Shown piece after piece: positions 4,041-62,070 of a stretch of DNA of 64,000 nucleotides. This DNA comes from an uncultured virus (IMG/VR IMGVR_UViG_3300031772_000018). Lineage: Duplodnaviria > Heunggongvirae > Uroviricota > Caudoviricetes. Position 1 is the first letter of the stretch, and every line of letters starts with the position of its first letter. The stretch lies in the IMG/VR virus record IMGVR_UViG_3300031772_000018, one strand, 5' to 3'. A program made the translations under genes and the position numbers. A model generated the notes under the pieces. The model was not told where the DNA came from. It did not search any database and saw nothing but the letters and a program-made list of their open reading frames with translations.

Positions 4041-4220
4041 ATGTGGACGAAACCTAAATCGTGGGGCGGTTATGATACCGCTAAGGGAAAGTTTTATCTA
4101 CAAACCAAAGATGGTTTTTATATTACGGAAACCTCAACGGTGTGGGATGAAGCCTATGAGCTTTGGTTGAGCGGTAAAAGTAAGTGGAGTCTGTTTGGTT
4201 ACAAAGAAAAATTGATATGA
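4041..4220 (+). CDS. small hypothetical protein (59 aa, MWTKPKSWGG...)
   Basis: Starts right after promoter at ~4006; stop overlaps the ligase start (ATGA). Confidence 0.65.
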   Translation: MWTKPKSWGGYDTAKGKFYLQTKDGFYITETSTVWDEAYELWLSGKSKWSLFGYKEKLI

Positions 4221-5191
4221 TTAAATTCCCAGAAATTGAAGGTCTGCATCAGATTGTCAAGATGCTTGACAAGTATCCTCAGTATATTCCTGTTGCACCC
4301 ATCGTGTATAAAGGTAAAATCAAACTACACGGCACCAATGGTAGTGTTGCAATTTATCCTGACGGCCGTGTAATTGCGCAGAGCCGTGAGCAAGAATTGG
4401 TTGATGGTGCTGATAATGCTGGGTTTGCTAAGTGGGTTGAAAGCAACCTGATTCATTTCCGCTGTCTTCAAGATAATGTCCAAGTTACTGTATTCGGTGA
4501 ATGGTGTGGGAAGGGCATTAACAAGGGTTGTGCAATTCATCAGATTCCTGAAAAACAATTTGTAGTTTTTATGATTCAGTTTGGTGACAATGAAACCGGT
4601 CAGTGTTATACCGAGCCGCATATTCTTGAAGATATTTTGGAATACATTCCGAATATCAATGTTTTGCCGTGGTATGAACCTGCTGAAATCACACTTGATT
4701 ATTCTAATAAGAGTCAATTGCGTGAGCAAGCAGACAAGATTTCTGCACTTGTTCTTGAAGTTGAGAAGTGTGACCCGTGGGTTAAATTACAATTTGCTGT
4801 AGAAGGAATTGGTGAGGGCATTGTTTATTATCCTCAAATTCCTATGGACCGTGAGAGCTACACACGTTATATGTTTAAGGCTAAGGGTGAGAAGCATCAG
4901 GTTGTTGTTCAGAAGCAAGCCGTGCAAGTTGATCCCGAAGTGGCCAAGAGCATTGACGAATTTGTGACGATGTTTGTTACAGAGAATCGTTGTCAACAGG
5001 GACTTAACGTTGCCTGTGGTGATGTTCTTGACCGCAAGTTGACGGGACAATTCTTGAAGTGGCTCTGTCAGGATGTCTTAAAGGAAAGTAAAACCGAATT
5101 AGAAGCGTCTAACCTTACGTGGGATGACGTTAAACAAGCTGTGCAGAAGGCTGCGCAGAAGTGGTGGCTTATCAAAACTGCTTCCATTTAA
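4217..5191 (+). CDS. ATP-dependent RNA ligase, Rnl2-like family
   Basis: Nucleotidyltransferase motifs KLHGTN, FGEWCG, EGIVY, FKAK; start reassigned to ATG 4217. Confidence 0.85.
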   Translation: MIKFPEIEGLHQIVKMLDKYPQYIPVAPIVYKGKIKLHGTNGSVAIYPDGRVIAQSREQELVDGADNAGFAKWVESNLIHFRCLQDNVQVTVFGEWCGKGINKGCAIHQIPEKQFVVFMIQFGDNETGQCYTEPHILEDILEYIPNINVLPWYEPAEITLDYSNKSQLREQADKISALVLEVEKCDPWVKLQFAVEGIGEGIVYYPQIPMDRESYTRYMFKAKGEKHQVVVQKQAVQVDPEVAKSIDEFVTMFVTENRCQQGLNVACGDVLDRKLTGQFLKWLCQDVLKESKTELEASNLTWDDVKQAVQKAAQKWWLIKTASI

Positions 5192-5202
5192 ATGTCCGAA
5201 CC

Positions 5203-5372
5203 CTCCCGTGTTATGATATTGGAGAATTTTTAACAAAGTTTGTTTGAATCCGCAGTAAATTGGCCTACATAATGTTCAGACGTTCTTATGTGTTTCTTTC
5301 TGCCAATTTGGATTCCACGACGACAACTAACATTGTCAGTCTCCGTTAAAAAGTTACAACATAACACGGGAG
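5203..5372. ncRNA. 6S RNA-like long irregular hairpin
   Basis: Perfect 13-bp closing stem CTCCCGTGTTATG/CATAACACGGGAG, second stem TTTTTAAC/GTTAAAAA, central bubble, GAATCC/GGATTC and AAATTGGC/GCCAATTT, apical ACATAA/TTATGT; intergenic, 170 nt. Confidence 0.55.
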
Positions 5373-5422
5373 CGAATTTTAGTGCTTGACATAATTATAT
5401 AAATCGGTATAATTAGTAAATT

Positions 5423-5659
5423 ATGAAATCTGAAGGCATTTACATTGTTACTAGGAAACTCACGGGTGTTACACTTAATTTAACTCTTGAAGAAGCCGGT
5501 TATTTACGAAAGGTTTGTGGTCAAATCGGTGGCGACCCTGATACGACTCCTCGAGGATTTTTCACTAAACTCGCTAATCATCTAGACAGTTTGGGTGTGA
5601 AAAAAACCGGCGAAATCTCTGACTCTGACGGAACTGGTATATTTTTTGAGAAATTTTGA
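5423..5659 (+). CDS. hypothetical protein, paralog of 838-1053
   Basis: LNLTLEEAGYLRKVCGQIGGDPDTTPR; promoter at 5386. Confidence 0.8.
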   Translation: MKSEGIYIVTRKLTGVTLNLTLEEAGYLRKVCGQIGGDPDTTPRGFFTKLANHLDSLGVKKTGEISDSDGTGIFFEKF

Positions 5660-5666
5660 GAGATAA

Positions 5667-5846
5667 ATGAATAAGAGTGTTACAAAGTATTCACGGGTTA
5701 TCAATGCCCGTGAAGAAAGGGATGCTTGGAAGGCTTCCAAGCGGGGTAAGGTTCGTAATCCCAATGGCAGACGGGAACGCCAAAAATATACTTACCAACA
5801 AATCATTGACATTTTGGCCGATGAACAGGACAGATATGACAGATAA
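5667..5846 (+). CDS. small basic hypothetical protein (59 aa, MNKSVTKYSR...)
   Basis: ORF filling the gap; stop overlaps the HD gene start region. Confidence 0.55.
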   Translation: MNKSVTKYSRVINAREERDAWKASKRGKVRNPNGRRERQKYTYQQIIDILADEQDRYDR

Positions 5847-6414
5847 AGCAACGATTCTGCCTGAGGATGAATTTACAGAGATTTCTAAAGTTGACCTTGT
5901 TAGCAAAGCTCTAACCTTTGCTACGAAGGCGCATGAAGGGCAGACACGCAAGTATACAGTTGAGCCGTATATCAATCATCCGATACGGGTGATGGAAAAG
6001 GTTAAAACGGTAACAAGTGAACCGACGATGCTTGCTGCGGCTCTCTTGCATGATGTTGTTGAGGATTGTGGGGTTAATCTGACTACGATTGAAAAAGAAT
6101 TTGGTCTTGGTGTTGCTCTATTAGTTTTTCAGTTGACAAGTCCAAGCAAACAATTTCCTAAGATGGAGAGAGCAAACCGCAAACAATTAGACCGCTACCA
6201 TTTAGCTGTTGCTAGTGGTGATGCTCAGACAATTAAATTTGCGGACTTCCTTGATAATGTTCCGAGTATCGTTAAGCATGACCCTGAGTTTGGTAAGGTT
6301 TATGTATTGGAAAAGATTGCAGATGTACATGTTATGACGAAGGGCAATACATATTTGCTGAAAGAAGTTCGTGAAATGCTTTACCGAGCCTCAACAGATT
6401 TGGAAATCGTTTAA
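5836..6414 (+). CDS. HD-domain hydrolase, RelA/SpoT (Mesh1/small alarmone hydrolase)-like
   Basis: AHEGQTRK, PYINHP, LLHDVVED, KFADFLDN motifs; likely start ATG 5836. Confidence 0.88.
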   Translation: MTDKATILPEDEFTEISKVDLVSKALTFATKAHEGQTRKYTVEPYINHPIRVMEKVKTVTSEPTMLAAALLHDVVEDCGVNLTTIEKEFGLGVALLVFQLTSPSKQFPKMERANRKQLDRYHLAVASGDAQTIKFADFLDNVPSIVKHDPEFGKVYVLEKIADVHVMTKGNTYLLKEVREMLYRASTDLEIV

Positions 6415-6870
6415 ATGAATATTGGTTCAAAGAGTAGGTATCCCGCATCAGCTCTTAGTAATTTTGCGCCCCATCCGTTTGTGATTTATGGGGTAAAGTG
6501 TAACAGCATGGAAGGGTTTTTACAATCTTTAAAATGCAAGTATCCCCGTATACAAATAGAAATCTGTAAGCTTGTTGGTTTAGCTGCAAAGTATAAGGGT
6601 AAGAAATACAAGTGGTGGAAAGATGGAATTGTATATTGGAATGGCCGAGCAATAGACAGACACGGCGATGAATACCAAAAACTTTTGGATACCGCATTCA
6701 CCGAATTATATAATCAGTCACAATCGTTTAGAAAAGCGTTAAAAGCAACTGGAATGTCTCCGTTGACACATACCATTGGTAAGACTAATCCAAAAGAAAC
6801 GATATTAACTCAATCAGAATTTTGTTATCGGTTAAAAATGTTAAGAGATTATGGACAAATTCCCGCTTGA
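6415..6870 (+). CDS. NADAR-family protein (T4 gp30.3-like)
   Basis: LSNFAPHPF, SMEGFLQSLK, LTHTIGK...TILT motifs. Confidence 0.8.
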   Translation: MNIGSKSRYPASALSNFAPHPFVIYGVKCNSMEGFLQSLKCKYPRIQIEICKLVGLAAKYKGKKYKWWKDGIVYWNGRAIDRHGDEYQKLLDTAFTELYNQSQSFRKALKATGMSPLTHTIGKTNPKETILTQSEFCYRLKMLRDYGQIPA

Positions 6871-6978: not shown

Positions 6979-7532
6979 AACCGCTAATATTATTTCTTGC
7001 AGTGTTGTGTCTATCTACCAATCTCCAAGCTAAATCAGAGAAAGCTGTAAATTTGCTCGATGGTATTTCCATGCAGACGCAGCATTATACTCAAACAATT
7101 AAGGCTAAGCCGCTTGCTATTACAAAGTTTGGTTGGCGCGAAGGTTATTGTCAATGGTGTCAAAAGCAAAACATTGTTAGTCACTATATTGAGTTGGCAA
7201 ACTGGGGCTGTGCAGTTTGTGATTTTTCAACAGGTACGCAATGTCAATGTGAACGCGGTCATTATTGGTATCAAAAATATATGACAAATGGAACGGTGCA
7301 AGTCGAAAGATTTAAGTTAAGCAAACGTATACTGCCGGACACACGACAATGGGCGGCATTGCATCGTGAGCCGGTGACTATTGTATTACCAACAGACCCG
7401 CTGCCTGATTTGAAGCTTCCGCGGCGTGAGAAGGAAACGGATACATTGTCACTAATATCAAGTGCGAGCGCTGAGGAAATTACTGTTAGACCGCCGACTA
7501 TTCGATATATTCTATTTAGACGAGGCGAATGA
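6975..7532 (+). CDS. secreted Cys-rich protein
   Basis: N-terminal signal peptide; CxxC motifs. Confidence 0.7.
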   Translation: MKPLILFLAVLCLSTNLQAKSEKAVNLLDGISMQTQHYTQTIKAKPLAITKFGWREGYCQWCQKQNIVSHYIELANWGCAVCDFSTGTQCQCERGHYWYQKYMTNGTVQVERFKLSKRILPDTRQWAALHREPVTIVLPTDPLPDLKLPRREKETDTLSLISSASAEEITVRPPTIRYILFRRGE

Positions 7533-7885
7533 AAAAGTTAGTATATCGAGCAAGTGATTTTACACCGACAGAGTTTACTACGGCAGATGAAAAGGCACGT
7601 TTTGCAAATCACTTCATTCGATTTATAGAAAGTGGTTGTAAGTGGACATTATTCCATATATGGTTTTATCGTAAATTAAGCAACTGCTTTGGAATGCATG
7701 CCCATTATGACCGACGCAACTTCCACGCTGCTTGTTTTGAAAAGTATGGTGGTAAAAATTACAATCTTTCTAGCTTCATAGATGATTGCTTGGAATATCC
7801 TTGTTATGGTGACCCCAGTTATACTTTTTGTGATGTTGAGAAGAAACTAAAAGAATACTTGACAAATTATAAAAAATCAGTATAA
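7529..7885 (+). CDS. hypothetical protein
   Basis: ATGA-coupled 118-aa ORF. Confidence 0.75.
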   Translation: MKKLVYRASDFTPTEFTTADEKARFANHFIRFIESGCKWTLFHIWFYRKLSNCFGMHAHYDRRNFHAACFEKYGGKNYNLSSFIDDCLEYPCYGDPSYTFCDVEKKLKEYLTNYKKSV

Positions 7886-8744: not shown

Positions 8745-8785
8745 ATTGCTCTTGACAAATATATAAAAATGGATATACTTATTGT

Positions 8786-9330
8786 TAGTTGAGTGACGCT
8801 AGCAGTTACTTGACTTGAAGGCAGCGGAAATGAATCAGGTTGCAACGCGTTATCTGACAAAGCCAAAGGCTGCCTAAAAATTTAGAAGTGTAGTCACGAA
8901 TCGGTTGGCAGGTTCAACCTAACATCGCAACACGAGGCTTTCGAAAAGTCAGACGGGCGGGATGGCCAGCAGACCGTGACTCGATTTAGAAGTAAATGGT
9001 TCTTTAACAATTTAGCATCGCACTTGGTAGGACAAGTGCTGTCGGGGTAAGCCCGGCCGAGGTTGCGTGTAAACCTTGCCTGTTACCTCTCTGGCCAACC
9101 ATTCGACGTCGAGTGAGTCCTGGAGAAATAATAACGGATAAGCAGGGGAGTAGGGAGTAAGCGATTAAATGATGAATTTTTGACGCCGATAACAATCACA
9201 GCTCCACCAATTTAGTGCCTTCACCGGTGGTGAACCAACCCCTGCAGGGGTTATGCTTCAAGCCGTACTAGAAGGCATTAAAAAATGCTGGTGGGGTCGC
9301 TCCCCTTTATCACAATTCTGTGGACAGCAA
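8786..9330 (+). ncRNA. multi-module structured ncRNA cassette A
   Basis: Promoter 8752-8779 with no credible ORF; closed modules AGGCAGC/GCTGCCT, AGTCACG/CGTGACT, GTGCCTTC/GAAGGCAT, many GC-rich hairpins, ATTTAG linkers, boxA-like GTTCTTTAACA at 8999. Confidence 0.65.
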
Positions 9331-11385: not shown

Positions 11386-11431
11386 ATAATCTTCTCCATT
11401 AAGATAAATAGTGTTATCTATTCAAAAACAA

Positions 11432-12508
11432 ATGAAAATTTCATTAAATAACTACGATTTTACCGATTTTATTGTGCATGAACAAGAATTTTGTGGTGTT
11501 TCTTCAAAACTCATTCAACCACAACACATTGGAATTAAATTTAATCAGACCAATAAGATTTTTCGTTCTTCAATTTGGGATTTGGAAGGCAATCTGTTGT
11601 CTGCTGGTTTTCCTAAGTTTACTAATTTTGGTGAGAATTCAGAAAATTTTACTGTCCCCCTCTCTGTTAATGGTGTCGATTTTGTAACTAAAATCGACGG
11701 CTCTCTTGTCTGTATTGATTTTGTTAATGAGCGTCTGAATATGCGCACGCGAGGCACCTTCCATCACACATCATTAGAAAATTGGGCAGACTTTGAGTAT
11801 TGCTTAAATAACAATCCTAAGCTTGTTGAATGGCTCAAGAAGAATTCCAATTATACTTTGCTTTGTGAAATTACTACGCCCAATTTGAAAATAGTCATTG
11901 ACTACGGTGTTACGCCACAATTTTGGTTGGTCGGCGCCATCAATAAAAATGACTATTCTCTTATGATTCAATCTGAATTAAATGGACTTGCGATTGAATT
12001 AAATATCAATCGTCCTGAAGTTTATTCATTTAATTCTATTGAACATTGTATTGATTCCGTAAAACTTTGGAATGGTAAGGAAGGTGTCTGCTTATACTCT
12101 CAAAACGGCCAAGCAATTCACAAAATCAAAGCAGAAATTTATTTGAAGTTGCATCGGTTTAAGGAAAATGCAACGATGGATAACACTATTGATTTATTTT
12201 TTGAATATAATTGTCCTTCATATAATACTTTTCTTGAAATGTTAATGGCGCAGTTTGATTTTGAATGCATGCAAATGGTTTTACCGTTTGTTTCAAAGAT
12301 TGTTGACTCAAAGAAAAAGGTTGATGTCATTGTTGCTCATATGAAGTCATTTGTTGAGCCTCTCAAGGTTGTCTCCCGTAAGGATGCTGCGTTAGCGATT
12401 GTTGGCTCTTACGGTAAGACTAACCGCTCATCGTTTATGTTTTCTCTATTGGATGGTAAGGAATTAACTGTCGAACAAATGAAGAAATTGGTGTATCAGT
12501 GCTTGTAA
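11432..12508 (+). CDS. RNA ligase, T4 Rnl1-like
   Basis: FPKFTN, KIDGSL, TRG, EGVCL, KIKAEIYLKLH motifs. Confidence 0.85.
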   Translation: MKISLNNYDFTDFIVHEQEFCGVSSKLIQPQHIGIKFNQTNKIFRSSIWDLEGNLLSAGFPKFTNFGENSENFTVPLSVNGVDFVTKIDGSLVCIDFVNERLNMRTRGTFHHTSLENWADFEYCLNNNPKLVEWLKKNSNYTLLCEITTPNLKIVIDYGVTPQFWLVGAINKNDYSLMIQSELNGLAIELNINRPEVYSFNSIEHCIDSVKLWNGKEGVCLYSQNGQAIHKIKAEIYLKLHRFKENATMDNTIDLFFEYNCPSYNTFLEMLMAQFDFECMQMVLPFVSKIVDSKKKVDVIVAHMKSFVEPLKVVSRKDAALAIVGSYGKTNRSSFMFSLLDGKELTVEQMKKLVYQCL

Positions 12509-15459: not shown

Positions 15460-15651
15460 ATGAAAGTTAAGTTCCTCCACGAATCCAAAATTCGTATCAA
15501 AATTAACCGCTATTGCGGCGATGGTTGCTGCAGCTGGCCGGAATGGGTGGATTCTGAAGCATTCAAGGACGAGGAGTATGTCGTTGATGATGAAGTAGAT
15601 GTGACGGGACTTGTATTTAATAAAGACTACATAATCATTGAGTATCCATAA
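15460..15651 (+). CDS. small acidic Cys-containing protein
   Basis: CGDGCC; promoter at ~15423. Confidence 0.65.
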   Translation: MKVKFLHESKIRIKINRYCGDGCCSWPEWVDSEAFKDEEYVVDDEVDVTGLVFNKDYIIIEYP

Positions 15652-16397
15652 TGAAAACAATCGTAATCAGCGACTTGCACAATCAAGTGTCATGGGTCGA
15701 AGGCTATTTAGCCTCAACGACTTACGACGAAGTTGTGTTTCTTGGCGATTACTTTGATAATTTCTACGATTCGCTTGTTGACATTAAAAGGGCTGCAGAA
15801 TGGCTCAAAAATAGTCTTAAACAGCGCAACCGCATACACTTATGGGGCAACCACGATTTGTGGTATGCTCATCCTCTTGCTAAAGGTTTGCACTGTTCTG
15901 GCAATACAAGTGAGAAGCAAGTAACCATAGAAGGTGTGTTGGATGCTGATGATTGGCAACAGCTTAGGCTCTGTTATTTTAGTCAAAACTTCCTATTTAG
16001 CCATGCTGGCATTCATAAGTCTTGGGCATTACATTCTATAAAAGGGTTTGATTATCAATACCTTACGGAGATTTGTGAGGAAGCGCTTACGTATGCTAAG
16101 TGTGGTCATACGCCGCGCCTATTGCGTGCAGGATGGTCAAGGGGCGGTGATTTACCTGTTGGTGGTATAACTTGGTTGGATTACGATACGGAATTTGTAC
16201 CAATCAATGGGATTCATCAAATTGTGGGTCATACACCGCATCCAAACCCTTTAGGGAAAGGTATTTACAAAGCTTCTCCGAACAGGAAGGATAGTTTGAG
16301 CAACAATTACGATGTAGATTTTGCTAATCGGTATATAACGATTGTTCAGGATGGCGTCGTAAGTCATGAAAAGAGTCCATTTTTCAACGATAATTAA
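15651..16397 (+). CDS. calcineurin-like metallophosphoesterase
   Basis: SDLH, GDYFD, GNHD, SHAG, GHT motifs. Confidence 0.92.
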   Translation: MKTIVISDLHNQVSWVEGYLASTTYDEVVFLGDYFDNFYDSLVDIKRAAEWLKNSLKQRNRIHLWGNHDLWYAHPLAKGLHCSGNTSEKQVTIEGVLDADDWQQLRLCYFSQNFLFSHAGIHKSWALHSIKGFDYQYLTEICEEALTYAKCGHTPRLLRAGWSRGGDLPVGGITWLDYDTEFVPINGIHQIVGHTPHPNPLGKGIYKASPNRKDSLSNNYDVDFANRYITIVQDGVVSHEKSPFFNDN

Positions 16398-17035: not shown

Positions 17036-17380
17036 ATGACAAACGACAAAGTTATTAAGTTTCTTCGCGGTCTTGCCCTAACTTCACTCCCCTGTTCTCC
17101 TGTTATCAAGGAACAAGCGCTCGACCTCTTAATTGAGATTAGCCCAAGTCCAGAGATGTTTTATACGATTGTCGGCTCGACAGCAATGGGCAGTCCACGT
17201 TTTAATCTTTCTCCTACGCAATACATTATCATTGATGATTTTCTTGCTATGGGTAATAAGATTGCTGCTATTAAGGAAATCCGGCGGGTGACAAATTGGG
17301 GCTTGAGGGATGCTAAGGATGCATCAGAGGATGTACGTAATTTTACCAATGCTAAGCCTCCTGTTTTTACAGCATTTTAA
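17036..17380 (+). CDS. protein with ribosomal bL12 (L7/L12) C-terminal domain
   Basis: NKIAAIKEIRRVTNWGLRDAKDASE matches the bL12 CTD signature; N-terminus unrelated to bL12. Confidence 0.8.
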   Translation: MTNDKVIKFLRGLALTSLPCSPVIKEQALDLLIEISPSPEMFYTIVGSTAMGSPRFNLSPTQYIIIDDFLAMGNKIAAIKEIRRVTNWGLRDAKDASEDVRNFTNAKPPVFTAF

Positions 17381-17581: not shown

Positions 17582-17624
17582 GAATAGTTGTTGACAGAAA
17601 TAAGAATTGTGGTATGATAGATGT

Positions 17625-18061
17625 CGTTGAGAAAACAACGCTAAAATAAACCGTGGGAGTCAATGTTAAAGACCCGTCAGGAAATGACAAGCGAGCAAAC
17701 CGGTTAGAAGCCAACCTTAAACTCAATGCTAGTGACTAGCAAAGTCAGACAAGACTGAAAAACCATCAGCACAAGATGTAAAAATCAGTCCGAGCAAGAC
17801 TTAAAACTCTCAGTCAGGAAAGACTCAAACATCAGTCATGACACGACTAAAACATCAGTCCGAACAAGACTCTAAATTGTCAGTCAGGACAAGACTCAAA
17901 AACCAGTCAGTCAAGACTTAAAAACCGCCGATGGTGAGTGGCGTAAAACAGAACCAAGTCTTTGATTGGCCTAGACGATAAACAAGTGCGCAACGAGGTT
18001 TCTTTTACGGCGAGCCGATACGGCGTAACCGAGTTTTCTTTTATCGCAATTAAAGAAAACT
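17625..18061 (+). ncRNA. ORF-free transcript containing a periodic mini-hairpin array
   Basis: Promoter TTGACA(17591)-N16-TATGAT(17613); repeated stem-loops; terminal hairpin GTTTTCTTT/AAAGAAAAC. Confidence 0.7.
17743..17949 (+). repeat. nine tandem 21-25 nt hairpin units (C-AGTC-N6/7-GACT-A-rich linker)
   Basis: Stems start at 17743, 17764 (CATC/GATG), 17787, 17812, 17834, 17857, 17882, 17905, 17926 (CGCC/GGCG). Confidence 0.9.
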
Positions 18062-18107
18062 TCCATTTTCCTCTTGACTTATTATATAATTTCTGTATAA
18101 TTATACT

Positions 18108-18365
18108 ATGAAAGCAAGACTATCGTGGTATGTAATCAAAAAGTATTTTCGTGGCGGCAGCTCTGAATACGCCTTTCGTTTGACAAAGAAAATTGCCAAT
18201 GAATGGTCAAGTTGGGATGGGTTGTTTGAATATATTGGAGAGAATACAAACGGTGGTCATGAATCAGGTTATACTATTCATGCTTACAGAAAATTTTCAA
18301 AGCCCAAAGATATGAAAGTACTTTCTATAGAATCAGTTACAAGAACGGGTATTGTTGTTAAATAA
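18108..18365 (+). CDS. hypothetical protein
   Basis: Promoter at ~18074. Confidence 0.7.
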   Translation: MKARLSWYVIKKYFRGGSSEYAFRLTKKIANEWSSWDGLFEYIGENTNGGHESGYTIHAYRKFSKPKDMKVLSIESVTRTGIVVK

Positions 18366-18749: not shown

Positions 18750-18794
18750 TTAAATAGATGTTGACAAATATATAAAAATATATATACTTGTTAG

Positions 18795-19385
18795 TAGTGA
18801 GTTGTTAATTGGTTAGTTTGATGGAGACTTTAACAACTTTCTCTCCCGTGCTGGGGGAGACGAGATCCATCAGCGGCGACCAACCGCGTCAAGACAAAAT
18901 GAATTTTAGATGTTGATGGCTGGGGGCACTACAGCAGCTATCAAATAAGGTTTATGGTAATCCTAAAAAACCACTGGTAGCGGAGGTTGTAAATGTTCTT
19001 TTGATAACTTATGGGCAAGAAAGCTCAAAATGGTAGAGAGCGCATTATGTAGACCCGATTGACGAATCTAGTGTAACGCACTATAGGCGGCGCCGTGAAC
19101 CGGTAAAGCGGACCAACGGTTTATATCACGAACACTCGAAGTAAAGAGGTAGCGGGTTCGACTCCCGCCTTGCCCATCAATTTGTTTCGCTGGATTATAC
19201 TGTAGAACGGTATAGGCGTAGAGTGTCCTGAGGAGGTATGGCTTCGTCGGACCTAAGACTAACACGCACCATAACAAGCGAAACAATCAATTTGCAAACG
19301 GTGCTAGACCGCATCGAATCACGGATTTTTCTAGCCTACTCCGTGTGAAGTTTTTTGGTTGTCGAATATAAGCAAACCAAAGCTA
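18795..19385 (+). ncRNA. multi-module structured ncRNA cassette B
   Basis: Promoter 18761-18788, no credible ORF; pseudoknot-like 5' module, boxA-like TGTTCTTTTGA at 18994, tRNA-like module, module closed by TTGTTTCGCT/AGCGAAACAA, AATTTG linkers. Confidence 0.65.
19013..19176 (+). ncRNA. tRNA-like RNA with ~100-nt structured insert replacing the anticodon arm
   Basis: Acceptor GGGCAAG/CTTGCCC-A, D-arm GCTC-AAAATGGTAGA-GAGC, T-arm GCGGG-TTCGACT-CCCGC; no 7-nt anticodon loop; followed by TCA not CCA. Confidence 0.75.
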
Positions 19386-19430
19386 TTTTGTTGTTGACAT
19401 TTATTATAATTTCCGTATAATAAGAGAATA

Positions 19431-19610
19431 ATGAATAAAGTTATTGAATATCGAATTGTTGACTTAGGCCTAAAGCATCACCTTGAAAAAACTGTCAATG
19501 ACTGGATTAGATTAGGTTGGATTCCGATTGGCGGCGTAACTTTTATTGAATCCCATTTTCCTGGTGGGTCAGATTCTTGGATACAGGCAATGGTAAGATA
19601 TGAGAGTTGA
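19431..19610 (+). CDS. DUF1737-like small protein (59 aa)
   Basis: LEKTVNDWIRLGWIPIGGV...QAMVR; follows promoter at ~19394. Confidence 0.7.
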   Translation: MNKVIEYRIVDLGLKHHLEKTVNDWIRLGWIPIGGVTFIESHFPGGSDSWIQAMVRYES

Positions 19611-25389: not shown

Positions 25390-25707
25390 ATGAAGGCATT
25401 ACTTACCCTCTTATTCGTTTTAATTACATCCGTGGTATCAGCTCAAGTACTCGATTACCATATTAAAACCTTTGCCTTCACCAATGATGTCTCTAAAGGT
25501 TGGACAAACAACTGGCTCTATGTCGAAGCTCATAGCGAAACCAACGACCTCTGGGGTAAAGAAGTCTACCTCGAAGGTAAAGTTAATATAACCGATACCA
25601 ATTGGACCGAAGTCGCAGGCACACGTTACCTCTACACCGGTATCCAAACCAATGTTAACTTCCGCCAAGGTAACTTTAAATTCTACCGCGCGGGCCATAC
25701 CGACTAA
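25390..25707 (+). CDS. small secreted protein
   Basis: Signal peptide MKALLTLLFVLITSVVSA; TN-rich; C-terminal KFYRA. Confidence 0.7.
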   Translation: MKALLTLLFVLITSVVSAQVLDYHIKTFAFTNDVSKGWTNNWLYVEAHSETNDLWGKEVYLEGKVNITDTNWTEVAGTRYLYTGIQTNVNFRQGNFKFYRAGHTD

Positions 25708-25714
25708 TAGATGT

Positions 25715-25980
25715 TATCCCTATGCTCTCCCCATAGGTGCAGGTAGTCTCCCCATAGTATCTCCCCTCGATGCTCCCCATTAACCCCCCTTAAATGGGGT
25801 GGGGTACCCTTCTGAATAGGGGGGTACAGCATACCCCCACCGCAGGGATACCCTTTTTAGATCCGGGCCTAGAAAATCCCATTGAATTTTTTATTATAAA
25901 AGAAGTGATTTAATGGGTATATTTTTGAGATTAAGTAGGGGTTTGGTGTGCGGGGGCGGGGGCAAAAAAATATAGGGGAA
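25715..25980. other. putative replication origin
   Basis: Four CTCCCC direct repeats, inverted G/C tracts, adjacent AT-rich stretch; C-rich top strand to the left and G-rich to the right despite unchanged gene orientation. Confidence 0.5.
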
Positions 25981-26271
25981 AAGTTATTAAATTATTAAAT
26001 GGTTATAATAATTATATGGGGTAATATTATGATTAATGTAATAGTTGATAAGATTATTAAGGGTGGTGGGTATGAGGATTGTGAGGTAATTGGATCTTTA
26101 ATGGAGCTTTATAATGAACCTGATGGGGATGTGGTGAGTGGGTCTGGGGGTATTATTGAATATAGGCGGAAGTTAATGGAGAAGATTGAGCGATTAAGCA
26201 TTGACTGATAATATATATTAGGGATACCGCGAGGGTATATAAGAAGCAGCAAATAATGGAGAATTGAGATT

Positions 26272-27054: not shown

Positions 27055-27316
27055 GATTGTTATAGACAACAAAAAGGAATAGATATGTTAAGTTTAATAT
27101 TGTTAGTGTTGTTAGTATTGGCGGGTCTTAGTTTAGTTACGGGGGATAAGCTTCCGTATTCTGAGCATTGTCGGGGCTTGGTTATACTTGTGGCGCTTTG
27201 GGTACTTTTGTGGAAGGTATTTGGGCATTAAGGTTGGGTGATTATTTATATTATTGACATAGTTTTGAAATTGTGTATGATATATAAGTGTTGTGGGAGT
27301 TCTTTGAGAAGTTAAT

Positions 27317-27701
27317 GGGAGTGTAAAGGTATCGACTTAGGGTACAGCTTATGAATGCATGTGGAGGGTTGAGTGAAAGGCCTCTTTAAAAATTCATTCG
27401 AAAAAGTAAATGCTGAAAACAGTAATACTTATGGCTTTGTCTATGACAATGGCCTTGTTCTTGCTTAATTAAATAGGCGAACCGTTATGTGGGATGATGT
27501 ATGATAGTTCTGGATAACGACATTTATCATATATTTGGTATACCGTTTAAATTTATGGGTATAGCGAATTAACAATAAGTTTCCTTGACAGGTAATTTTT
27601 CTATTTTTGATATTTGTCATTGTAAATGAAAGTAGGCAAGCATGTAGACTTCAATGGTATGTAGTTTAAGGACAGCGGTTCAATTCCGCTCACTTCCACC
27701 A
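27317..27701 (+). ncRNA. ssrA: tmRNA
   Basis: 5' GGGAGTG..TCGAC, GCATG pairing, 3' GGTTCAATTCC..CACTTCCACCA with G3-U pair; tag frame 27412-27468 AENSNTYGFVYDNGLVLA*; promoter 27254-27281. Confidence 0.95.
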
Positions 27702-31282: not shown

Positions 31283-31939
31283 ATGAAAAACTATACGGAA
31301 GTTCAAATCAAAGAAAATTTTAATACATTTATTGAATTTATAAAGTCTCATTTTTCTGGGGATAGGCTTGAGAAACTATTAAAAATGTATTCCGAAGAAG
31401 AATATGGTTATCGTGCTGCAATTGCTCCCGCCTCTTCCAAAGAATATTTATATAAATGTTATCCGGGTGGTTATATTGAGCATATTATGTGTGTTTGCAA
31501 ATCTGCGTTTGGCGTAAAAAAATTGTGGGAGACAATGGGAACGATTGTTGATTTTACCGACGAAGAATTAATATTTTCTGCGTTGCATCATAACTTGGGA
31601 AAACTTGGTGATGAAAACGGAGAATATTATCTTGTCCAAGATAATGATTGGCTGATAAAAAACCGCAGTGAATTGTATAAGATTAATATAGCGTTGCAAC
31701 ATATGCCGGTATGCGATAGGTCGTTGTATATATTACAAAAATATGGTATTAATTGTACTAAGGCGGAATATTTAGCAATCAAGTTATATGACGGAATGTA
31801 TAGTGAGCCTAACAAGACTTATTTACAGGTATTTGCAATTGAGAATGACTTGAAGACAAATTTGCCTCATATTATTCATGCCGCGAGTTATTTGGCCTGT
31901 CGTGTTGGAATTGATAGATACAAGCAAGAAAATCTATAA
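31283..31939 (+). CDS. HD-domain-like protein with degenerate metal ligands
   Basis: APAS...YPGGYIEH, LHHNLGK (HD to HN), IKLYDG, IHAAS. Confidence 0.75.
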   Translation: MKNYTEVQIKENFNTFIEFIKSHFSGDRLEKLLKMYSEEEYGYRAAIAPASSKEYLYKCYPGGYIEHIMCVCKSAFGVKKLWETMGTIVDFTDEELIFSALHHNLGKLGDENGEYYLVQDNDWLIKNRSELYKINIALQHMPVCDRSLYILQKYGINCTKAEYLAIKLYDGMYSEPNKTYLQVFAIENDLKTNLPHIIHAASYLACRVGIDRYKQENL

Positions 31940-32026
31940 TTAAGTATATATAAAGGAAAGAAAACCGCTCATATAGAGCGGTTTCTTTGTTTCATGACTA
32001 TATATAAGAATCGTAGATTATAACGC

Positions 32027-33010
32027 ATGAAACATTCAAAATTTTTTCCTCGTCTTTTACTTTTCTCCGCTTTAACACTTTCTTTTTGTGCCGCGTATTT
32101 TTCTGTATATGGCATTTCAAGTTTGTTTAGTGGAGCAATGATATCTGTCTCTATAATGGCTGGTTGTTTAGAAGTGGCTAAATTGGTTAGCAGTAGTTTT
32201 CTTTTTAGGTATTGGAACAAAACCAAAGCATTTTTAAAGGCCTATATGTTAATTGGTGTGGTGGTATTATTAATTATAACCTCAGCGGGCATATTTGGTT
32301 ATTTGTCAGCGGCTTATCAAAAATCTTCAACGGAAAGCAAGATATTAACGGAGAATGTTGAGCTTATAAATGGTCAAAAGAAAATTCTTATTGATCGAAT
32401 TGCTCAATCGAATAAGAGAATAGATTTTATAACAAAGTTGCGTGATACACAGGAGACGCGTTTAAGTGAAATGCTTAAGAATGAAGAGATTGCAAAGAAT
32501 ATTATTCAATTGCAAGAGGTACAGGGGCAAACCGCTGATTTGATTAAGAAGTCCGATGCTGATTTTGAAGTTGAAAACAAGAAAATACAAGAGTATACCG
32601 CCGGCATATCAAAATTAGATGCAGATGTGTCTCAGTTAAAGATAAAAGGGTTGGAAAAGAGAGATATAACTACATTTCAATTTGTTGCTGATGCGCTCGG
32701 TATGAATATAAATTCTGTAGTAAAGTGGTTTATTTTATCCTTAATATTTGTATTTGACCCAATGGCAATTGCGATGTTATTGGCATACAATACGATTGTA
32801 TATGAACATTTAACATATGGTAGAGATGAAGATTTGATAGAAAAAGATGAAAAAGTGGTTAAAACTGCGGAAGCATCTCCAATAAAAGAAGCAAATCAAG
32901 ATAATATACCATTAAAAGAGGCGGTTGCTGTCGAAGAAAAAGTTAAAAAGAGCAGTGGCGGAGCTTTTTCTAAGATTTTAAGAAAGCCTTTCTTAAAAAT
33001 GTATAAATAA
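32027..33010 (+). CDS. membrane protein with long coiled coil
   Basis: Three N-terminal TMs, coiled coil, C-terminal TM with FDP motif. Confidence 0.8.
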   Translation: MKHSKFFPRLLLFSALTLSFCAAYFSVYGISSLFSGAMISVSIMAGCLEVAKLVSSSFLFRYWNKTKAFLKAYMLIGVVVLLIITSAGIFGYLSAAYQKSSTESKILTENVELINGQKKILIDRIAQSNKRIDFITKLRDTQETRLSEMLKNEEIAKNIIQLQEVQGQTADLIKKSDADFEVENKKIQEYTAGISKLDADVSQLKIKGLEKRDITTFQFVADALGMNINSVVKWFILSLIFVFDPMAIAMLLAYNTIVYEHLTYGRDEDLIEKDEKVVKTAEASPIKEANQDNIPLKEAVAVEEKVKKSSGGAFSKILRKPFLKMYK

Positions 33011-34821: not shown

Positions 34822-36546
34822 ATGAGCACACTAATAACAAATCAATTATTTAATTATAATATTGATGAAGAAAATTTTTTAGCCACAAAGCGTGACTTAA
34901 AGTATATTCAAAATACTATAACGGAGATGCAATGGGAGCCGGGTATAGTTCTTGATATTATTTTGGATGATACCCACCCCCTTTTTAATAGTCCGGGTCT
35001 TGGAAATGTTGTTAATCCTGATATATGGCCGTTGAATTATAAAGATGAAATAGCTAAAAAGACTGATAAAAGTTATTCTGAGGTTGGTGTAGCTCTAATT
35101 CGACTATGCCTTTCACAAAATAAACAAGATAAAGAAGATGTTATTTATGCATATCCATTGGATAAAGAGTTTTCTTCATGTCCATTGTTAAATGAGATTG
35201 TGGGTGTCGTAAAATTTTTAGATAGATATTATTATTCAAACAAAATTAATTACAAGAATTTAGCTAATACCTCAGCAGATTTTAGGTTTGAACCGACTTA
35301 TGGCCAGATTGAAAAAAATACAGGTAATATTAGAAAAGACGGGACAGCTGATCCATTAAAAGGGCCTGAGTCAAAATTTGATTCTCTTTCGGCTGAAAAT
35401 AAAAACACTTATTTTCGGGGAATATTAGGAAATTACTTTTGGTTTAACCGAAGAATTAGAAATCTAAGAAGATTTGAGGGTGATACAATTATAGAAAGTC
35501 GCTTTGGCCAATCTATAAGATTTGGGGCATATGATTCCAACAGAAAAAATGATGTGGGTGCTTATGCTGATTATAAAACTGGAAAGGATGACAAAGCAAC
35601 AAACACCTTTAGTAATATGCACACGGGCGGAGGCAACCCGATGATTCTTATTAGAAATCGTCAACATCCTCTAGATAAAAGTAAATTATTAAATAGTGAA
35701 ATTAATGTGGGCGGGTATATTACAGAGGATATAAATAGTGATGGTTCAGCTATTCATATAACATCTGGTCTAACACAATCAAGATTTTTTCAAACGACAC
35801 TTAAAAGTATTTTTACAAAAGGCTCTGGATGGAAGTTTCCGCCCTTAGTAGGAGATCAAATTGTAATAAACTCTGACCGACTTGTTTTTTCAGCAAAAGC
35901 AAATGAAATCATGCATTTTTCAAAGAAGAGATATATGATTGTTACAGATGATGAATATGTTTTAGATGCTCAAAAACAAATTGTATTAAACACAAATAAT
36001 AAAACTGTTATAAATTCTCCAGCGATTTATTTGGGTGAATACAACAATACAAATGAACCGGCTGTTTTAGGACAGAGTTTGGTTGATTGGTTATTTGATA
36101 TATGTAATTGGATGTTAATGCATACGCATGAACATATGCATGTTCACAATCCACATACATCTCCGCCAATGACAAAAGCTCCAAAGGATTTTCCTGTTGA
36201 TCCTATGACTATACAATTAATATTACTTCGAGATAGATTACATAGTTTATTGAGCAGGCGAGTATTTTTAACAGGGGGCGGTTATGCTCCTGGATTTAAT
36301 GGTGTTGGAACGGATAGTGTTCAAATTAAAAATACTACGGGGGAGACATCACCTGCTGGTATTCCTGGAGGTTGGCATGGTAGAACTAGGAGAACGGATG
36401 CAGGTTTAAGTGATAATAGTGTTGTGGATTCTATAACTGCTACTATGGTTACTCCTATGAAGAGTTTTATAAATTCAAATGTTGGCAAAATGTCCGACAC
36501 AGAATTAACAAGAGAATTAGAAAAGATGATTGACGGAGCAATATAA
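34822..36546 (+). CDS. baseplate hub/spike-related protein (gp5/VgrG-like)
   Basis: PLLNEIV, EGDTIIESRFGQSIRF, beta-helix-like INSDRLVF...INSPAIYLG...EPAVLG, His cluster HTHEHMHVH; next to gp25 and gp6 genes. Confidence 0.65.
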   Translation: MSTLITNQLFNYNIDEENFLATKRDLKYIQNTITEMQWEPGIVLDIILDDTHPLFNSPGLGNVVNPDIWPLNYKDEIAKKTDKSYSEVGVALIRLCLSQNKQDKEDVIYAYPLDKEFSSCPLLNEIVGVVKFLDRYYYSNKINYKNLANTSADFRFEPTYGQIEKNTGNIRKDGTADPLKGPESKFDSLSAENKNTYFRGILGNYFWFNRRIRNLRRFEGDTIIESRFGQSIRFGAYDSNRKNDVGAYADYKTGKDDKATNTFSNMHTGGGNPMILIRNRQHPLDKSKLLNSEINVGGYITEDINSDGSAIHITSGLTQSRFFQTTLKSIFTKGSGWKFPPLVGDQIVINSDRLVFSAKANEIMHFSKKRYMIVTDDEYVLDAQKQIVLNTNNKTVINSPAIYLGEYNNTNEPAVLGQSLVDWLFDICNWMLMHTHEHMHVHNPHTSPPMTKAPKDFPVDPMTIQLILLRDRLHSLLSRRVFLTGGGYAPGFNGVGTDSVQIKNTTGETSPAGIPGGWHGRTRRTDAGLSDNSVVDSITATMVTPMKSFINSNVGKMSDTELTRELEKMIDGAI

Positions 36547-36997: not shown

Positions 36998-37423
36998 ATG
37001 AATATAGATAATTTTCGAAAAATCATCAGAGAAGAAGTATCTGCAGAATTAAAAAAAGTTATACCTGTAATATTAAATGAATATTTCAAGGGTGAAGACA
37101 AAAGAACCCTATCCTTTAATACTAAAAATTTGGGACACCTTTTGTCAGAAAATGATGAAGATAGTATAACTAATGTAGAATCTGAACCGAAGAAAGAGGT
37201 TAAAAAGCCATTGCGAATGTATTCTAAGAATCCTGTTTTAAATCAAATATTAAATGAAACCACGGTTAAAATTCCTACGGATTCTATGGTTGCGATGGAT
37301 GGAGAAGTTGAAGTTAATAAATCTGGTATAAATATAGAGAAAACCTTACCTTCTGTTTTTAATAAAGATTATTCACAATTATTGAAAGTTGTTGATGAAA
37401 AGGTTAAGAGTAGACGTGGATAA
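36998..37423 (+). CDS. hypothetical virion-associated protein
   Basis: RKIIREEV and NQILNET motifs; late motif upstream. Confidence 0.7.
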   Translation: MNIDNFRKIIREEVSAELKKVIPVILNEYFKGEDKRTLSFNTKNLGHLLSENDEDSITNVESEPKKEVKKPLRMYSKNPVLNQILNETTVKIPTDSMVAMDGEVEVNKSGINIEKTLPSVFNKDYSQLLKVVDEKVKSRRG

Positions 37424-37426
37424 TAT

Positions 37427-37852
37427 ATGACCATTAATACAAACACATCTGCTTCATTCAATCCGATTGGATTATTAATACCATTTACAAATGGAAGTAA
37501 TGGTTATTTTGCTCAATCATTTGATACAAACACTCAGGTAAAGCAAAATCTTGTTAATTTTTTGAATACGCGGCGTGGTGAGAGAAGAATGATGCCAGAA
37601 TTTGGCACAAAACTTTATGAGGTTTTGTTTGAACAAATAGATACTAACACATTAGAAATTGTTAAAAATATTGTCGCGGCGGAGTTACAACAATGGATTC
37701 CTCAAATTACTGTTCAAAATATATCTGTTAATAACAAGCAAAACACAGGTACCAATGATAATTATAAAATGGGGATATCTGTCGATTATATTGTAAATCA
37801 GACAAAAACACAGGATAACATAGCATTCGATATACAAAATGTTAATATATAA
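37427..37852 (+). CDS. baseplate wedge protein, gp25/GPW-like
   Basis: KQNLVNFLNTRRGERRMMPEFGT...LFEQ...WIP. Confidence 0.92.
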   Translation: MTINTNTSASFNPIGLLIPFTNGSNGYFAQSFDTNTQVKQNLVNFLNTRRGERRMMPEFGTKLYEVLFEQIDTNTLEIVKNIVAAELQQWIPQITVQNISVNNKQNTGTNDNYKMGISVDYIVNQTKTQDNIAFDIQNVNI

Positions 37853-61503: not shown

Positions 61504-62070
61504 ATGATAAAAGACAACATTCTTTCGACTAATACAATCTCTCTCCGAGAGAGATATGCAGATTCAGCGCATTCAAAGGTTGGTAAAATAACACCAAATG
61601 AAACGCCAATATTAGGTGTTTATAATAAATCCAAAGAATCTAAATTTGTTAAGATTTCTCCAAATGAAACCCCTATATTGGATACATTTAATAAATCAGA
61701 CCATTCTAAGTTTATAAAGCATACGCCTGATGAAACGCCTATCCTTGGAACTTTTAATAAGTCAGAGCATTCTCATTTTGTAAAGCATACACCAGACGAA
61801 ACGCCTATTCTTGCCACTTTTAATGCATCAGACCATTCTAAGTTTATTAAACATACACCAGATGAGACACCAATTCTTGCTACTTTTAACGCATCGGAGC
61901 ATTCTCATTTTGTAAAGCATAAGCCAGATGAAACGCCAATTCTTGCTACTTTTAATAAATCTGGTCATTCGAATTTTGTAAAACATACACCAAATGAAAC
62001 GCCTGTATTAGCTTTGTATAATTCATCGGGACATTCTACAGAAATTGACACTACAAAATATTATCCTTAA
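61504..62070 (+). CDS. tandem-repeat protein (7 x 22 aa)
   Basis: HSKFIKHTPDETPILATFNxSx consensus; late motif at 61491. Confidence 0.8.
   Translation: MIKDNILSTNTISLRERYADSAHSKVGKITPNETPILGVYNKSKESKFVKISPNETPILDTFNKSDHSKFIKHTPDETPILGTFNKSEHSHFVKHTPDETPILATFNASDHSKFIKHTPDETPILATFNASEHSHFVKHKPDETPILATFNKSGHSNFVKHTPNETPVLALYNSSGHSTEIDTTKYYP

Follow-up and report, generated by a model that had tools for sequence, protein, structure and literature searches.

The element described in this work is an array of nine short hairpin units at positions 17743–17949 of a 64,000-nucleotide (nt) stretch of DNA from an uncultured virus of the Caudoviricetes (IMG/VR record IMGVR_UViG_3300031772_000018). The whole stretch is called the window in the following, and all features of the array locus lie on its + strand. 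The closest described systems are of two kinds, namely RNAs built from short repeated modules and DNA arrays of replication-origin iterons.

Among the RNAs, the type III antitoxins (ToxI, AntiQ and CptI) consist of promoter-driven short tandem repeats that are closed by an end hairpin and have a small gene behind them, and they occupy their protein many times over. Phage PhiTE is described as making a pseudo-ToxI repeat RNA that mimics ToxI (PMC3475682), an instance of a phage carrying a repeat RNA as counter-defence. The array shares this layout with both and presumably the multiple occupation of a protein. The small RNAs CsrB, RsmY and RsmZ, which titrate CsrA, and CrcZ, which titrates Hfq/Crc, are also modular, with many short motifs on one RNA, and the array is presumed to titrate in the same manner. 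However, the array has no AANAANAA box as in CrcZ and its spacers contain only 4–5 A; it also differs from these small RNAs in its origin in a phage of the lytic type, its early promoter and its lack of an Rfam family. RNA anti-CRISPRs (Racrs; CRISPR, short palindromic repeats that are clustered and regularly interspaced) are described as solitary CRISPR-repeat mimics located just behind a promoter, with a recognisable model in the host (PMC10651486). They are likewise phage-encoded small structured units behind a promoter that are thought to bind host proteins by mimicry, but a Racr is a single repeat copy clearly like that of the host, whereas the array has no identified model repeat.

Among the DNA systems, the lambda-O iterons have AGTC/GACT half-sites identical to those of the array and share with it a period of ~22–23 bp and spacers that are often A-rich. 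T4 oriE, like the array, is described as joining an early promoter to direct repeats at even spacing, for which no role has yet been defined (PMC3016281). The lambda-O iterons have one centre length, lie mostly in an open frame and vary by plain substitutions. In contrast, the array is located in a gene-free stretch, has centres of 6, 7 and 10 nt and compensated stems, and is accompanied by no O-like gene in the available sequence.

The reading favoured here, to which we assign a probability of roughly 45%, is that 17625–18066 specifies an early, promoter-driven non-coding RNA of ~440 nt that acts in trans on one protein.

Structure of the array

The core array (17743–17949) comprises nine units, U1 to U9, arranged as three a-b-c blocks of ~70 nt each. 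By direct reading, the stems start at 17743, 17764, 17787, 17812, 17834, 17857, 17882, 17905 and 17926, which gives spacings of 21, 23, 25, 22, 23, 25, 23 and 21 nt; the spacings, stems and loops given in the original prediction, an annotation made from the sequence of the window, were thus reproduced. Each unit consists of a 4-bp stem, a loop of 6–7 nt (10 nt in U9) of the form M-G-N(1-3)-C-A-A, and a spacer of 8–10 nt of the form N-AAAA-M-Y-C, and the consensus of the unit is YC-AGTC-M-G-N(1-3)-CAA-GACT-N-AAAA-M-Y-C. Outside the stem, the A-run of the spacer is kept, as is the CAA that the loop carries on its 3' side.

Seven of the nine units have the stem AGTC/GACT, with the loops AGACAA, CGAGCAA, AGGAAA, ATGACAC, CGAACAA, AGGACAA and AGTCAA. 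In U2 (CATC-AGCACAA-GATG, 17764–17778), two base pairs are altered on both sides relative to AGTC/GACT, and in U9 (CGCC-GATGGTGAGT-GGCG, 17926–17943) two more pairs are altered on both sides and the loop is longer. The loop lengths from U1 to U9 are 6, 7, 7, 6, 7, 7, 7, 6 and 10 nt. The register of U9 was assigned by eye, MAFFT being unable to place this unit; its hairpin alone has a folding energy of −6.3 kcal/mol. At 17958–17976, the sequence and the fold show a tenth unit in degenerate form, GTCT-(11 nt)-AGAC, with GATAAACAAG behind it.

Tandem Repeats Finder reported 17743–17922 with a period of 23 nt in 7.8 copies and a super-period of 70 nt in 2.6 copies. The three a-b-c blocks align at a mean column identity of 78%, and this triple-block layout suggests that the founder was a three-hairpin module. 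Sites of the form AGTC-N5-8-GACT occur ten times in the window, seven of them within 17743–17918 and three elsewhere; the mean in shuffled sequences was 1.44, and none of 100 shuffles reached ten. A covariance model of the unit, run on the whole window, found the units nowhere outside the array.

Predicted transcription unit

The array is preceded by an early sigma-70-type promoter at 17591–17618 (TTGACA-16 nt-TATGAT, TG-extended), which agrees with the consensus at 11 of 12 positions. When TTGACA-16/18-TATAAT was sought across the window, allowing at most one mismatch in the 12 positions, 34 near-consensus promoters emerged on the + strand and none on the − strand. As had been predicted for this class, the promoter usually abuts an ATG: in 25 of the 34 cases the ATG lies 6–9 nt past the −10 box. 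The start codon is 20–86 nt away in four further cases, and an open reading frame (ORF) is absent after five.

Three of the ORF-less promoters are informative. Downstream of the one at 27254–27281, the transfer-messenger RNA (tmRNA) gene starts 35 nt further on (Rfam, 109.8 bits); the one at 18761 lies upstream of a tRNA-like gene, and the one at 8752 upstream of a strongly folding 500-nt stretch free of ORFs. Because the tmRNA and the tRNA-like gene follow two of the five, promoters without an ORF mark RNA genes in this phage. The array promoter belongs to the class that drives the tmRNA, which makes transcription of the array into a non-coding RNA very probable, judging from promoter sequence, with a predicted start near 17625.

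The absence of a credible ORF, which had also been claimed, was borne out: no ORF of at least 40 codons exists on the + strand within 17619–18066. The stretch 17625–18066 cannot code because its period of 23 nt is not divisible by three and TAA and TGA turn up repeatedly in each frame.

The predicted RNA would have a stable hairpin at its 5' end and a second hairpin at its 3' end, just ahead of the next promoter. The 5'-terminal hairpin (17625–17640) is CGTTG-AGAAAA-CAACG, followed by CTAAAATAAACC; its pair probability in the full-length fold is 0.81–0.94, and alone it has an energy of −4.1 kcal/mol. Between this hairpin and the array, 17655–17741 contains four short hairpins with unrelated stems, most of them followed by an A-rich spacer, whose membership in the array is uncertain: GGGAGTC/GACCC (17655–17675), GTCA-GGAAA-TGAC (17676–17688), GGTT/AACC (17702–17716) and TGCTAG-TGA-CTAGCA (17727–17741). 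Downstream of the array, the 3' part (17977–18031) carries a direct repeat CGAG(G/T)TTTCTTTTA at 17994 and 18030 and a small GCCG-ATA-CGGC hairpin.

The unit closes at 18032–18061 with an A/U-rich hairpin formed by AGTTTTCTTTTAT and ATTAAAGAAAACT and followed by TCCATTTTCC; it has 11 pairs, a complementarity of 92% and an energy of −9.1 kcal/mol. The end hairpin of the original prediction is thus present, but it is not a canonical terminator: it was not called by the terminator scan and ranks 8th in strength among the 34 stretches that precede promoters; it is possibly a weak terminator. The next early promoter (18074–18101), 13 nt past this hairpin, bounds the non-coding unit downstream and is followed by a leaderless gene of 85 codons (18108–18365). 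The early genes in general look leaderless (e.g., 801–838, 18074–18108 and 19394–19431), with no space for a Shine-Dalgarno sequence.

The composition of the locus bears on the idea of a cis-acting or priming transcript, which would let RNA polymerase read through, like the put RNAs of HK022, or prime replication from an R-loop, as at T4 oriF/oriG. The stretch 17625–17949 contains 41% A and 17% T, with an AT skew of +0.36 to +0.47, and the putative array RNA is rich in purines (A+G 61%), as this idea would have it. The array also lies directly behind an early promoter and ahead of the early gene run, and T4-type origins are described as a promoter followed by an element to which the transcript remains annealed (PMC3016281). 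However, every downstream gene has a strong promoter of its own, which makes read-through unneeded, and an RNA that binds polymerase would not be expected to carry nine copies of a module. Relative to its surroundings, the array is also not rich in A+T, and R-loop priming leaves the conservation of the stems unexplained. This explanation is improbable, slightly more so than the pseudo-antitoxin discussed below.

RNA hairpins or DNA sites

All nine array stems pair, and in U1 to U8 all 32 of the 32 stem cells are paired. Deviations from the consensus occur at 4 of 64 stem positions and at 32 of 131 positions elsewhere (Fisher p = 0.0016). Every deviation in a stem is compensated; U2 and U9 carry two double changes each, in agreement with the earlier claim that the two deviant stems keep pairing. 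The two pairs changed on both sides in U2 were equalled in 4 of 500 shuffles, and random assignment of the nine 3' arms to the nine 5' arms leaves every stem paired in only 1 of 72 deals. A register in which the spacer served as the loop instead would lose its pairing in U2 and U9. The conservation lacks symmetry, as CAAGACT on the right has no mirror image on the left.

The stem conservation bears on whether the array is a functionless minisatellite, i.e., a 70-bp block multiplied by slippage and tolerated within an early region that is hyper-variable, with palindromes derived from the founder unit. Recent triplication of a block of three units clearly gave rise to the array, the early region lacks conservation among the relatives, and the collections searched contain no homologue of the array. 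On the other hand, such a repeat would not account for stem positions that are significantly less variable than the rest and whose changes are compensated, nor for a full-strength promoter dedicated to the stretch. Phage genomes are also compact: in the first 30 kb, only nine stretches longer than 220 nt lack a + strand ORF, and RNA genes (tRNAs, the tRNA-like gene and the tmRNA) are found in at least three of them. A minisatellite without function is accordingly judged a shade less probable even than a cis-acting or priming transcript.

The strongest rival, which the original prediction had missed, is that the 23-bp units are double-stranded DNA sites of a phage initiator or regulator, forming an origin or a titration site that is activated or primed by early transcription, as has been proposed for T4 oriE. 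A pattern of two AGTC-N6/7-GACT units 8 nt apart gave 48 viral stretches in IMG/VR. With the pattern scans of metagenomes and genomes added, at least 18 other arrays of three or more AGTC-N6/7-GACT units were found, many at a spacing of 19–23 bp. A stop-free frame holds 15 of these 18 arrays, and of the 14 frames tested, nine matched Phage_rep_O, one HTH_36 and one, below threshold, RepA_N. The Phage_rep_O matches indicate that the AGTC-N6-GACT arrays are genuine lambda-O-type origin iterons. A spacing of ~22–23 bp is classical for iterons. In addition, the phage is T4-like (gp30.3, gp25 and SegE), an early-mode promoter lies beside evenly spaced repeats as in T4 oriE, and the palindromes fold equally well on both strands.

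Several features of the array do not fit such sites. The centre length is mixed in the array and uniform in all 18 comparison arrays, and the double changes keep the palindrome in both deviant units, which is not predicted by sequence-specific protein contacts. The asymmetry of the conserved part also speaks against iterons. The array is neither in nor beside a replication gene and no open frame runs across it. Phage_rep_O was matched by none of 100 ORFs of the window, which represents about one fifth of the genome, some four fifths lying outside the sequence, and by nothing in five further records, one of this phage (G001) and four of relatives, which include a complete genome of 320 kb. The units are confined to one place in the window, the GC content of the array equals the local average and does not mark an unwinding element, and the skew shows no inflection at 17.7 kb. 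T4 oriE, moreover, sits antisense within gene 5 and not in a gene-free unit. On balance, DNA iterons are unlikely, although they are clearly ahead of every other alternative considered here.

A mixed centre length is tolerated by a hairpin loop and should not be by a dimer on duplex half-sites. From this, the kept pairing, the lack of an ORF and the promoter class together, RNA is the better reading of the sequence, though not by a wide margin. The argument of the original prediction for RNA rather than DNA, which was drawn from variable loop length and covariation, stands in both of these respects. The mini-hairpins are of marginal stability and do not dominate the predicted ensemble, and neither strand is preferred by folding energy.

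A number of findings weigh against an RNA acting in trans. The covariation comes from paralogous units of one sequence, and only two units vary. Alone, the 4-bp mini-hairpins are marginal, at −1.8 to −3.4 kcal/mol, and in the full-length ensemble the local hairpin probabilities are 0.02–0.68, which are low because identical arms pair across units. The z-score of the whole RNA fold is −2.4 on the + strand and −2.8 on the − strand, and that of the array is −2.4 and −3.6, respectively; the stems contain no G-U pairs, so that the strands are not distinguishable. The upstream hairpins (17625–17742), among them the CGTTG/CAACG and GGTT/AACC pairs that had been proposed as look-alikes of the units, are at the level of chance in folding energy (z = −0.8), and this part of the earlier description is not upheld. 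AGTC-N6-GACT half-sites at a spacing of ~22 bp are proven DNA iterons in other phages. Furthermore, the searches made found no homologous array, the 23 sediment metagenome runs in which the locus is present include no RNA run, and no candidate for the partner was identified, the neighbouring 85-amino-acid (aa) protein having no recognisable fold or family.

The arrays designated L017, L022, L026, L028, L040, L049, L050, L056 and L186 consist of AGTC-N6-GACT units at a spacing of 19–22 bp inside Phage_rep_O genes, and this class of sites looks widespread for lambda-O-type initiators in unrelated phages and prophages.

Phage relatives and distribution

The genome is, from its gene content, that of a giant, distant T4-like myovirus (gp30.3, baseplate gp25, a SegE-type endonuclease, PhoH, primase and two RNA ligases). 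A 49-kb IMG/VR fragment that is 100% identical over the 1,021 bases compared is rated 15% complete, and the genome therefore probably measures ~300 kb. The nearest cultured relative has 25% identity in a 574-aa structural protein. By means of the same protein, at 48–68% identity, five relatives were chosen and examined as whole sequences together with a 320-kb phage. The tmRNA-PhoH neighbourhood is conserved in the relatives and the early region is not.

The five relatives and the 320-kb phage contain no similar tandem array, and the unit covariance model, a check suggested with the original prediction, gave no match on the relatives better than E = 1.1. Searching the array against 50,697 phage records by megablast and blastn gave no match. 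In the IMG/VR scan with the two-unit pattern, this kind of array occurred only in the phage itself among the 48 stretches; with a three-unit pattern, at least three hairpin units were present only in the phage itself, among the matches listed. The metagenome scan gave one unrelated array, L066, among the matches listed, and the scan of a collection of 185,579 species genomes gave 12 stretches, none of this kind. In contigs from four sediment runs, which cover the locus partially and at low depth, the pieces of the array are identical to the window.

The proteins flanking the array were found in IMG/VR only in the same phage, apart from one DUF3846 protein with 34% identity; this match lies in the 320-kb phage without the array, and the literature on DUF3846 gave a single, unrelated mention. 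The 85-aa protein encoded downstream has two homologues with 52–55% identity on short ENA contigs of 2,402 and 1,871 bp. It belongs to no Pfam or PADLOC family; its AlphaFold model has a predicted local distance difference test score (pLDDT) of 71.7, Foldseek found no fold in the PDB at E ≤ 0.001, and the ESM Atlas gave nothing informative. The array is an orphan element that probably belongs among the repeat-built protein-binding RNAs.

Possible functions

In the proposed mechanism, the RNA would be made in bulk right after infection and would, in vivo, display its module, a stem-loop (loop G...CAA) with a single-stranded A-rich spacer, nine or perhaps ten times. These copies would offer many equivalent sites to a single RNA-binding protein or ribonuclease, from either the host or the phage, and the protein would be titrated, scaffolded or diverted by the RNA, either whole or cut in the spacers. 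Endoribonucleases that cut A-rich sequence, Hfq-like or S1-like binders of A-rich RNA, and a phage RNA-binding regulator are the conceivable classes of partner. The setting of the early region, which is rich in RNA-related genes (two RNA ligases, an HD phosphohydrolase, a metallophosphoesterase, tRNAs and the tmRNA), is in favour of such a role.

A special case of this mechanism is that the processed repeat RNA acts as a pseudo-antitoxin, or competitive substrate, of a host endoribonuclease with a preference for A-rich sites, either a type III toxin of the ToxN/AbiQ kind or another RNase of abortive infection. The enzyme would cut the spacers and then be occupied by the units, as with the pseudo-ToxI repeats of phage PhiTE. 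Type III toxins cut in A-rich sequence, and the N-AAAA-M spacers of the array fit such cutting. Genes for RNA repair surround the array in the early region. The layout of the locus, i.e., tandem nucleotide repeats behind a single promoter, a palindromic hairpin and a small gene, is also like that described for type III systems (PMC5086642). Type III operons carry a Rho-independent terminator between repeats and toxin gene; at the array locus there is the A/U-rich hairpin at 18032–18061, which the terminator scan did not call, and a downstream gene with a separate promoter. The units themselves fit less well: at 23 nt there is room for only one simple hairpin of 4 bp, whereas antitoxin units are ~34–45 nt long. 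The latter are described as folding into pseudoknots with single-stranded tails (PMC5086642). Downstream of the array, no gene of the ToxN, CptN or TenpN type was found, and the 85-codon gene has its own promoter. In addition, the strict two-unit pattern revealed no host array of this unit in the 185,579 species genomes. The type III analogy of the original prediction thus fails on the short unit and the lack of a ToxN-like gene, and a pseudo-antitoxin is considered quite unlikely, about half as probable as DNA iterons.

The original prediction had also compared the units with RNA anti-CRISPRs. On this view, the units would imitate a CRISPR repeat of the host, in both its hairpin and its handle, and bind up Cas6, Cas7 or Cas13 as an array without spacers. 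With a hairpin and an A-rich tail of 8–10 nt, the unit is shaped broadly like the 3' half seen in many class 1 repeats. The 9-mer GACTAAAAC, which lies in U5, is identical to the final part of the Cas13a handle, and the 12-mer that has GGGG ahead occurs in 93 papers, which among those listed mostly concern Cas13a. This 9-mer, however, occurs once in the window and is present in 47 of 100 shuffles of the window, which is the level of chance. Cas13a repeats have a CCCC/GGGG stem with a ACUAAAAC flank, whereas in the array GACU is the stem. The array is tandem and nine-fold, Racrs being solitary, and no CRISPR-DR family of Rfam matched at E up to 10. With no known repeat matched, CRISPR-repeat mimicry is very unlikely.

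Least probable of all is a sponge for CsrA/RsmA of the CsrB/RsmZ kind, another analogy drawn earlier. GGA in the context CAGGA occurs in three loops, namely those of the hairpin at 17676–17688, U4 and U7. These are only 3 of ~14 hairpins, the sites are 137 and 70 nt apart, the conserved element of the loops is CAA and not GGA, and the CsrB, CsrC and Rsm families of Rfam gave no match. More generally, the Rfam scan of the locus, which had been proposed as a check, matched no family at the gathering score, nor any at E up to 10, including the CsrB/Rsm, ToxI-type and CRISPR-DR models. An anticodon arm has a 5-bp stem and a 7-nt loop with U33 and a purine at position 37. The suggested decoy of tRNA anticodon arms was rejected because the stems have 4 and not 5 bp and only the U5 loop (AUGACAC) has a U at the U33 position.

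Returning to an RNA acting in trans on a protein, a role in biasing translation is conceivable, given the leaderless early genes. The A-rich array RNA might absorb a factor needed only by leadered host messages, or a binder of A-rich RNA, with ribosomal protein S1, Hfq and an A-specific defence ribonuclease as candidates; the chance that this is its role is slim. The conserved CAAGACTNAAAAC has no antisense targets in the window.

Surrounding genome

A set of genes resembling an RNA-repair system lies at 4184–6870, 11411–12508 and 15651–16397 and includes RNA ligases, an HD phosphohydrolase, a gp30.3 homologue and a calcineurin-like phosphoesterase, with tRNA genes at 499–651 nearby. Upstream of the array, 17036–17380 encodes a 114-aa protein whose residues 73–99 give a borderline score of 26.5 bits (cut-off 25.9) for the C-terminal domain of ribosomal protein L7/L12.

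Three stretches lie behind ORF-less promoters of the early class. The non-coding stretch 18761–19390 has a tRNA-like core at ~19012–19178 with the acceptor stem TGGGCAA/TTGCCCA, a D-arm, the T-arm GGTTCGACTCC and an 87-nt insertion in the anticodon loop. The T-arm is matched by the tmRNA model (E = 0.0005), and the gene is seen only at relaxed ARAGORN settings. In 8752–9290, the promoter at 8752–8779 is followed by ~500 nt free of ORFs, for which the minimum free energy is −178.8 kcal/mol over 556 nt; no Rfam family matched, and this stretch may be another structured RNA gene. The tmRNA locus (27254–27701) has the unusual tag AENSNTYGFVYDNGLVLA and the same promoter class as the array. Its counterparts in the distant relatives, at 37225–37600 of G004, 7202–7584 of G005 and 31672–32054 of G007, have the conserved tmRNA-PhoH neighbourhood and different tags.

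The relative G004 contains a 19/38-nt repeat at 1940–2100 with inverted repeats of the TTAGG-TTAG-CCTAA type; the 19-nt repeat (1948–2090) was considered as an analogue of the array and rejected, its inverted repeats being longer and of another kind. At 2140–2450, G004 carries two copies of a ~70-nt element (GATAACGATAAAGGTAT...), each followed by TTTTATAAAAAGT-like boxes, which possibly represent a promoter type of its own with small RNAs.

Two other tandem repeats of the window are located inside genes: 63 nt in 3.5 copies with 98% identity at 41510–41727, in a gene of 1,053 codons, and 66 nt in 6.4 copies at 61591–62036, in a gene of 188 codons ahead of the SegE-like endonuclease. The ORF-free stretch 25700–26010 contains C-runs and then G-runs (CTCCCC, CCCCCC, GGGGTGGGG and GCGGGGGCGGGGGC) and folds at −97 kcal/mol over 311 nt; G004 has a C-rich ORF-free stretch at a comparable place (35260–36106).

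Implications

The comparison with the lambda-O-type arrays calls for caution, since periodic mini-palindromes need checks of centre length and covariation before they are labelled as RNA. The literature on phage repeat and decoy RNAs that was searched describes no such array. If the RNA reading is true, the array would be an element undescribed in that literature and in Rfam, in which a large T4-like phage gives a full-strength early promoter over to a hairpin RNA of many copies. Since the array is short, modular and easily synthesised, it could serve to fish directly for binding partners. Should the RNA absorb a factor needed by leadered host messages, translation or RNA survival would tilt towards the phage, and the array would be an RNA device for host takeover without a described counterpart. 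Being neither a CRISPR-repeat mimic nor a mimic of a type III antitoxin, an RNA of this kind would enlarge the small set of RNA tools of phages.

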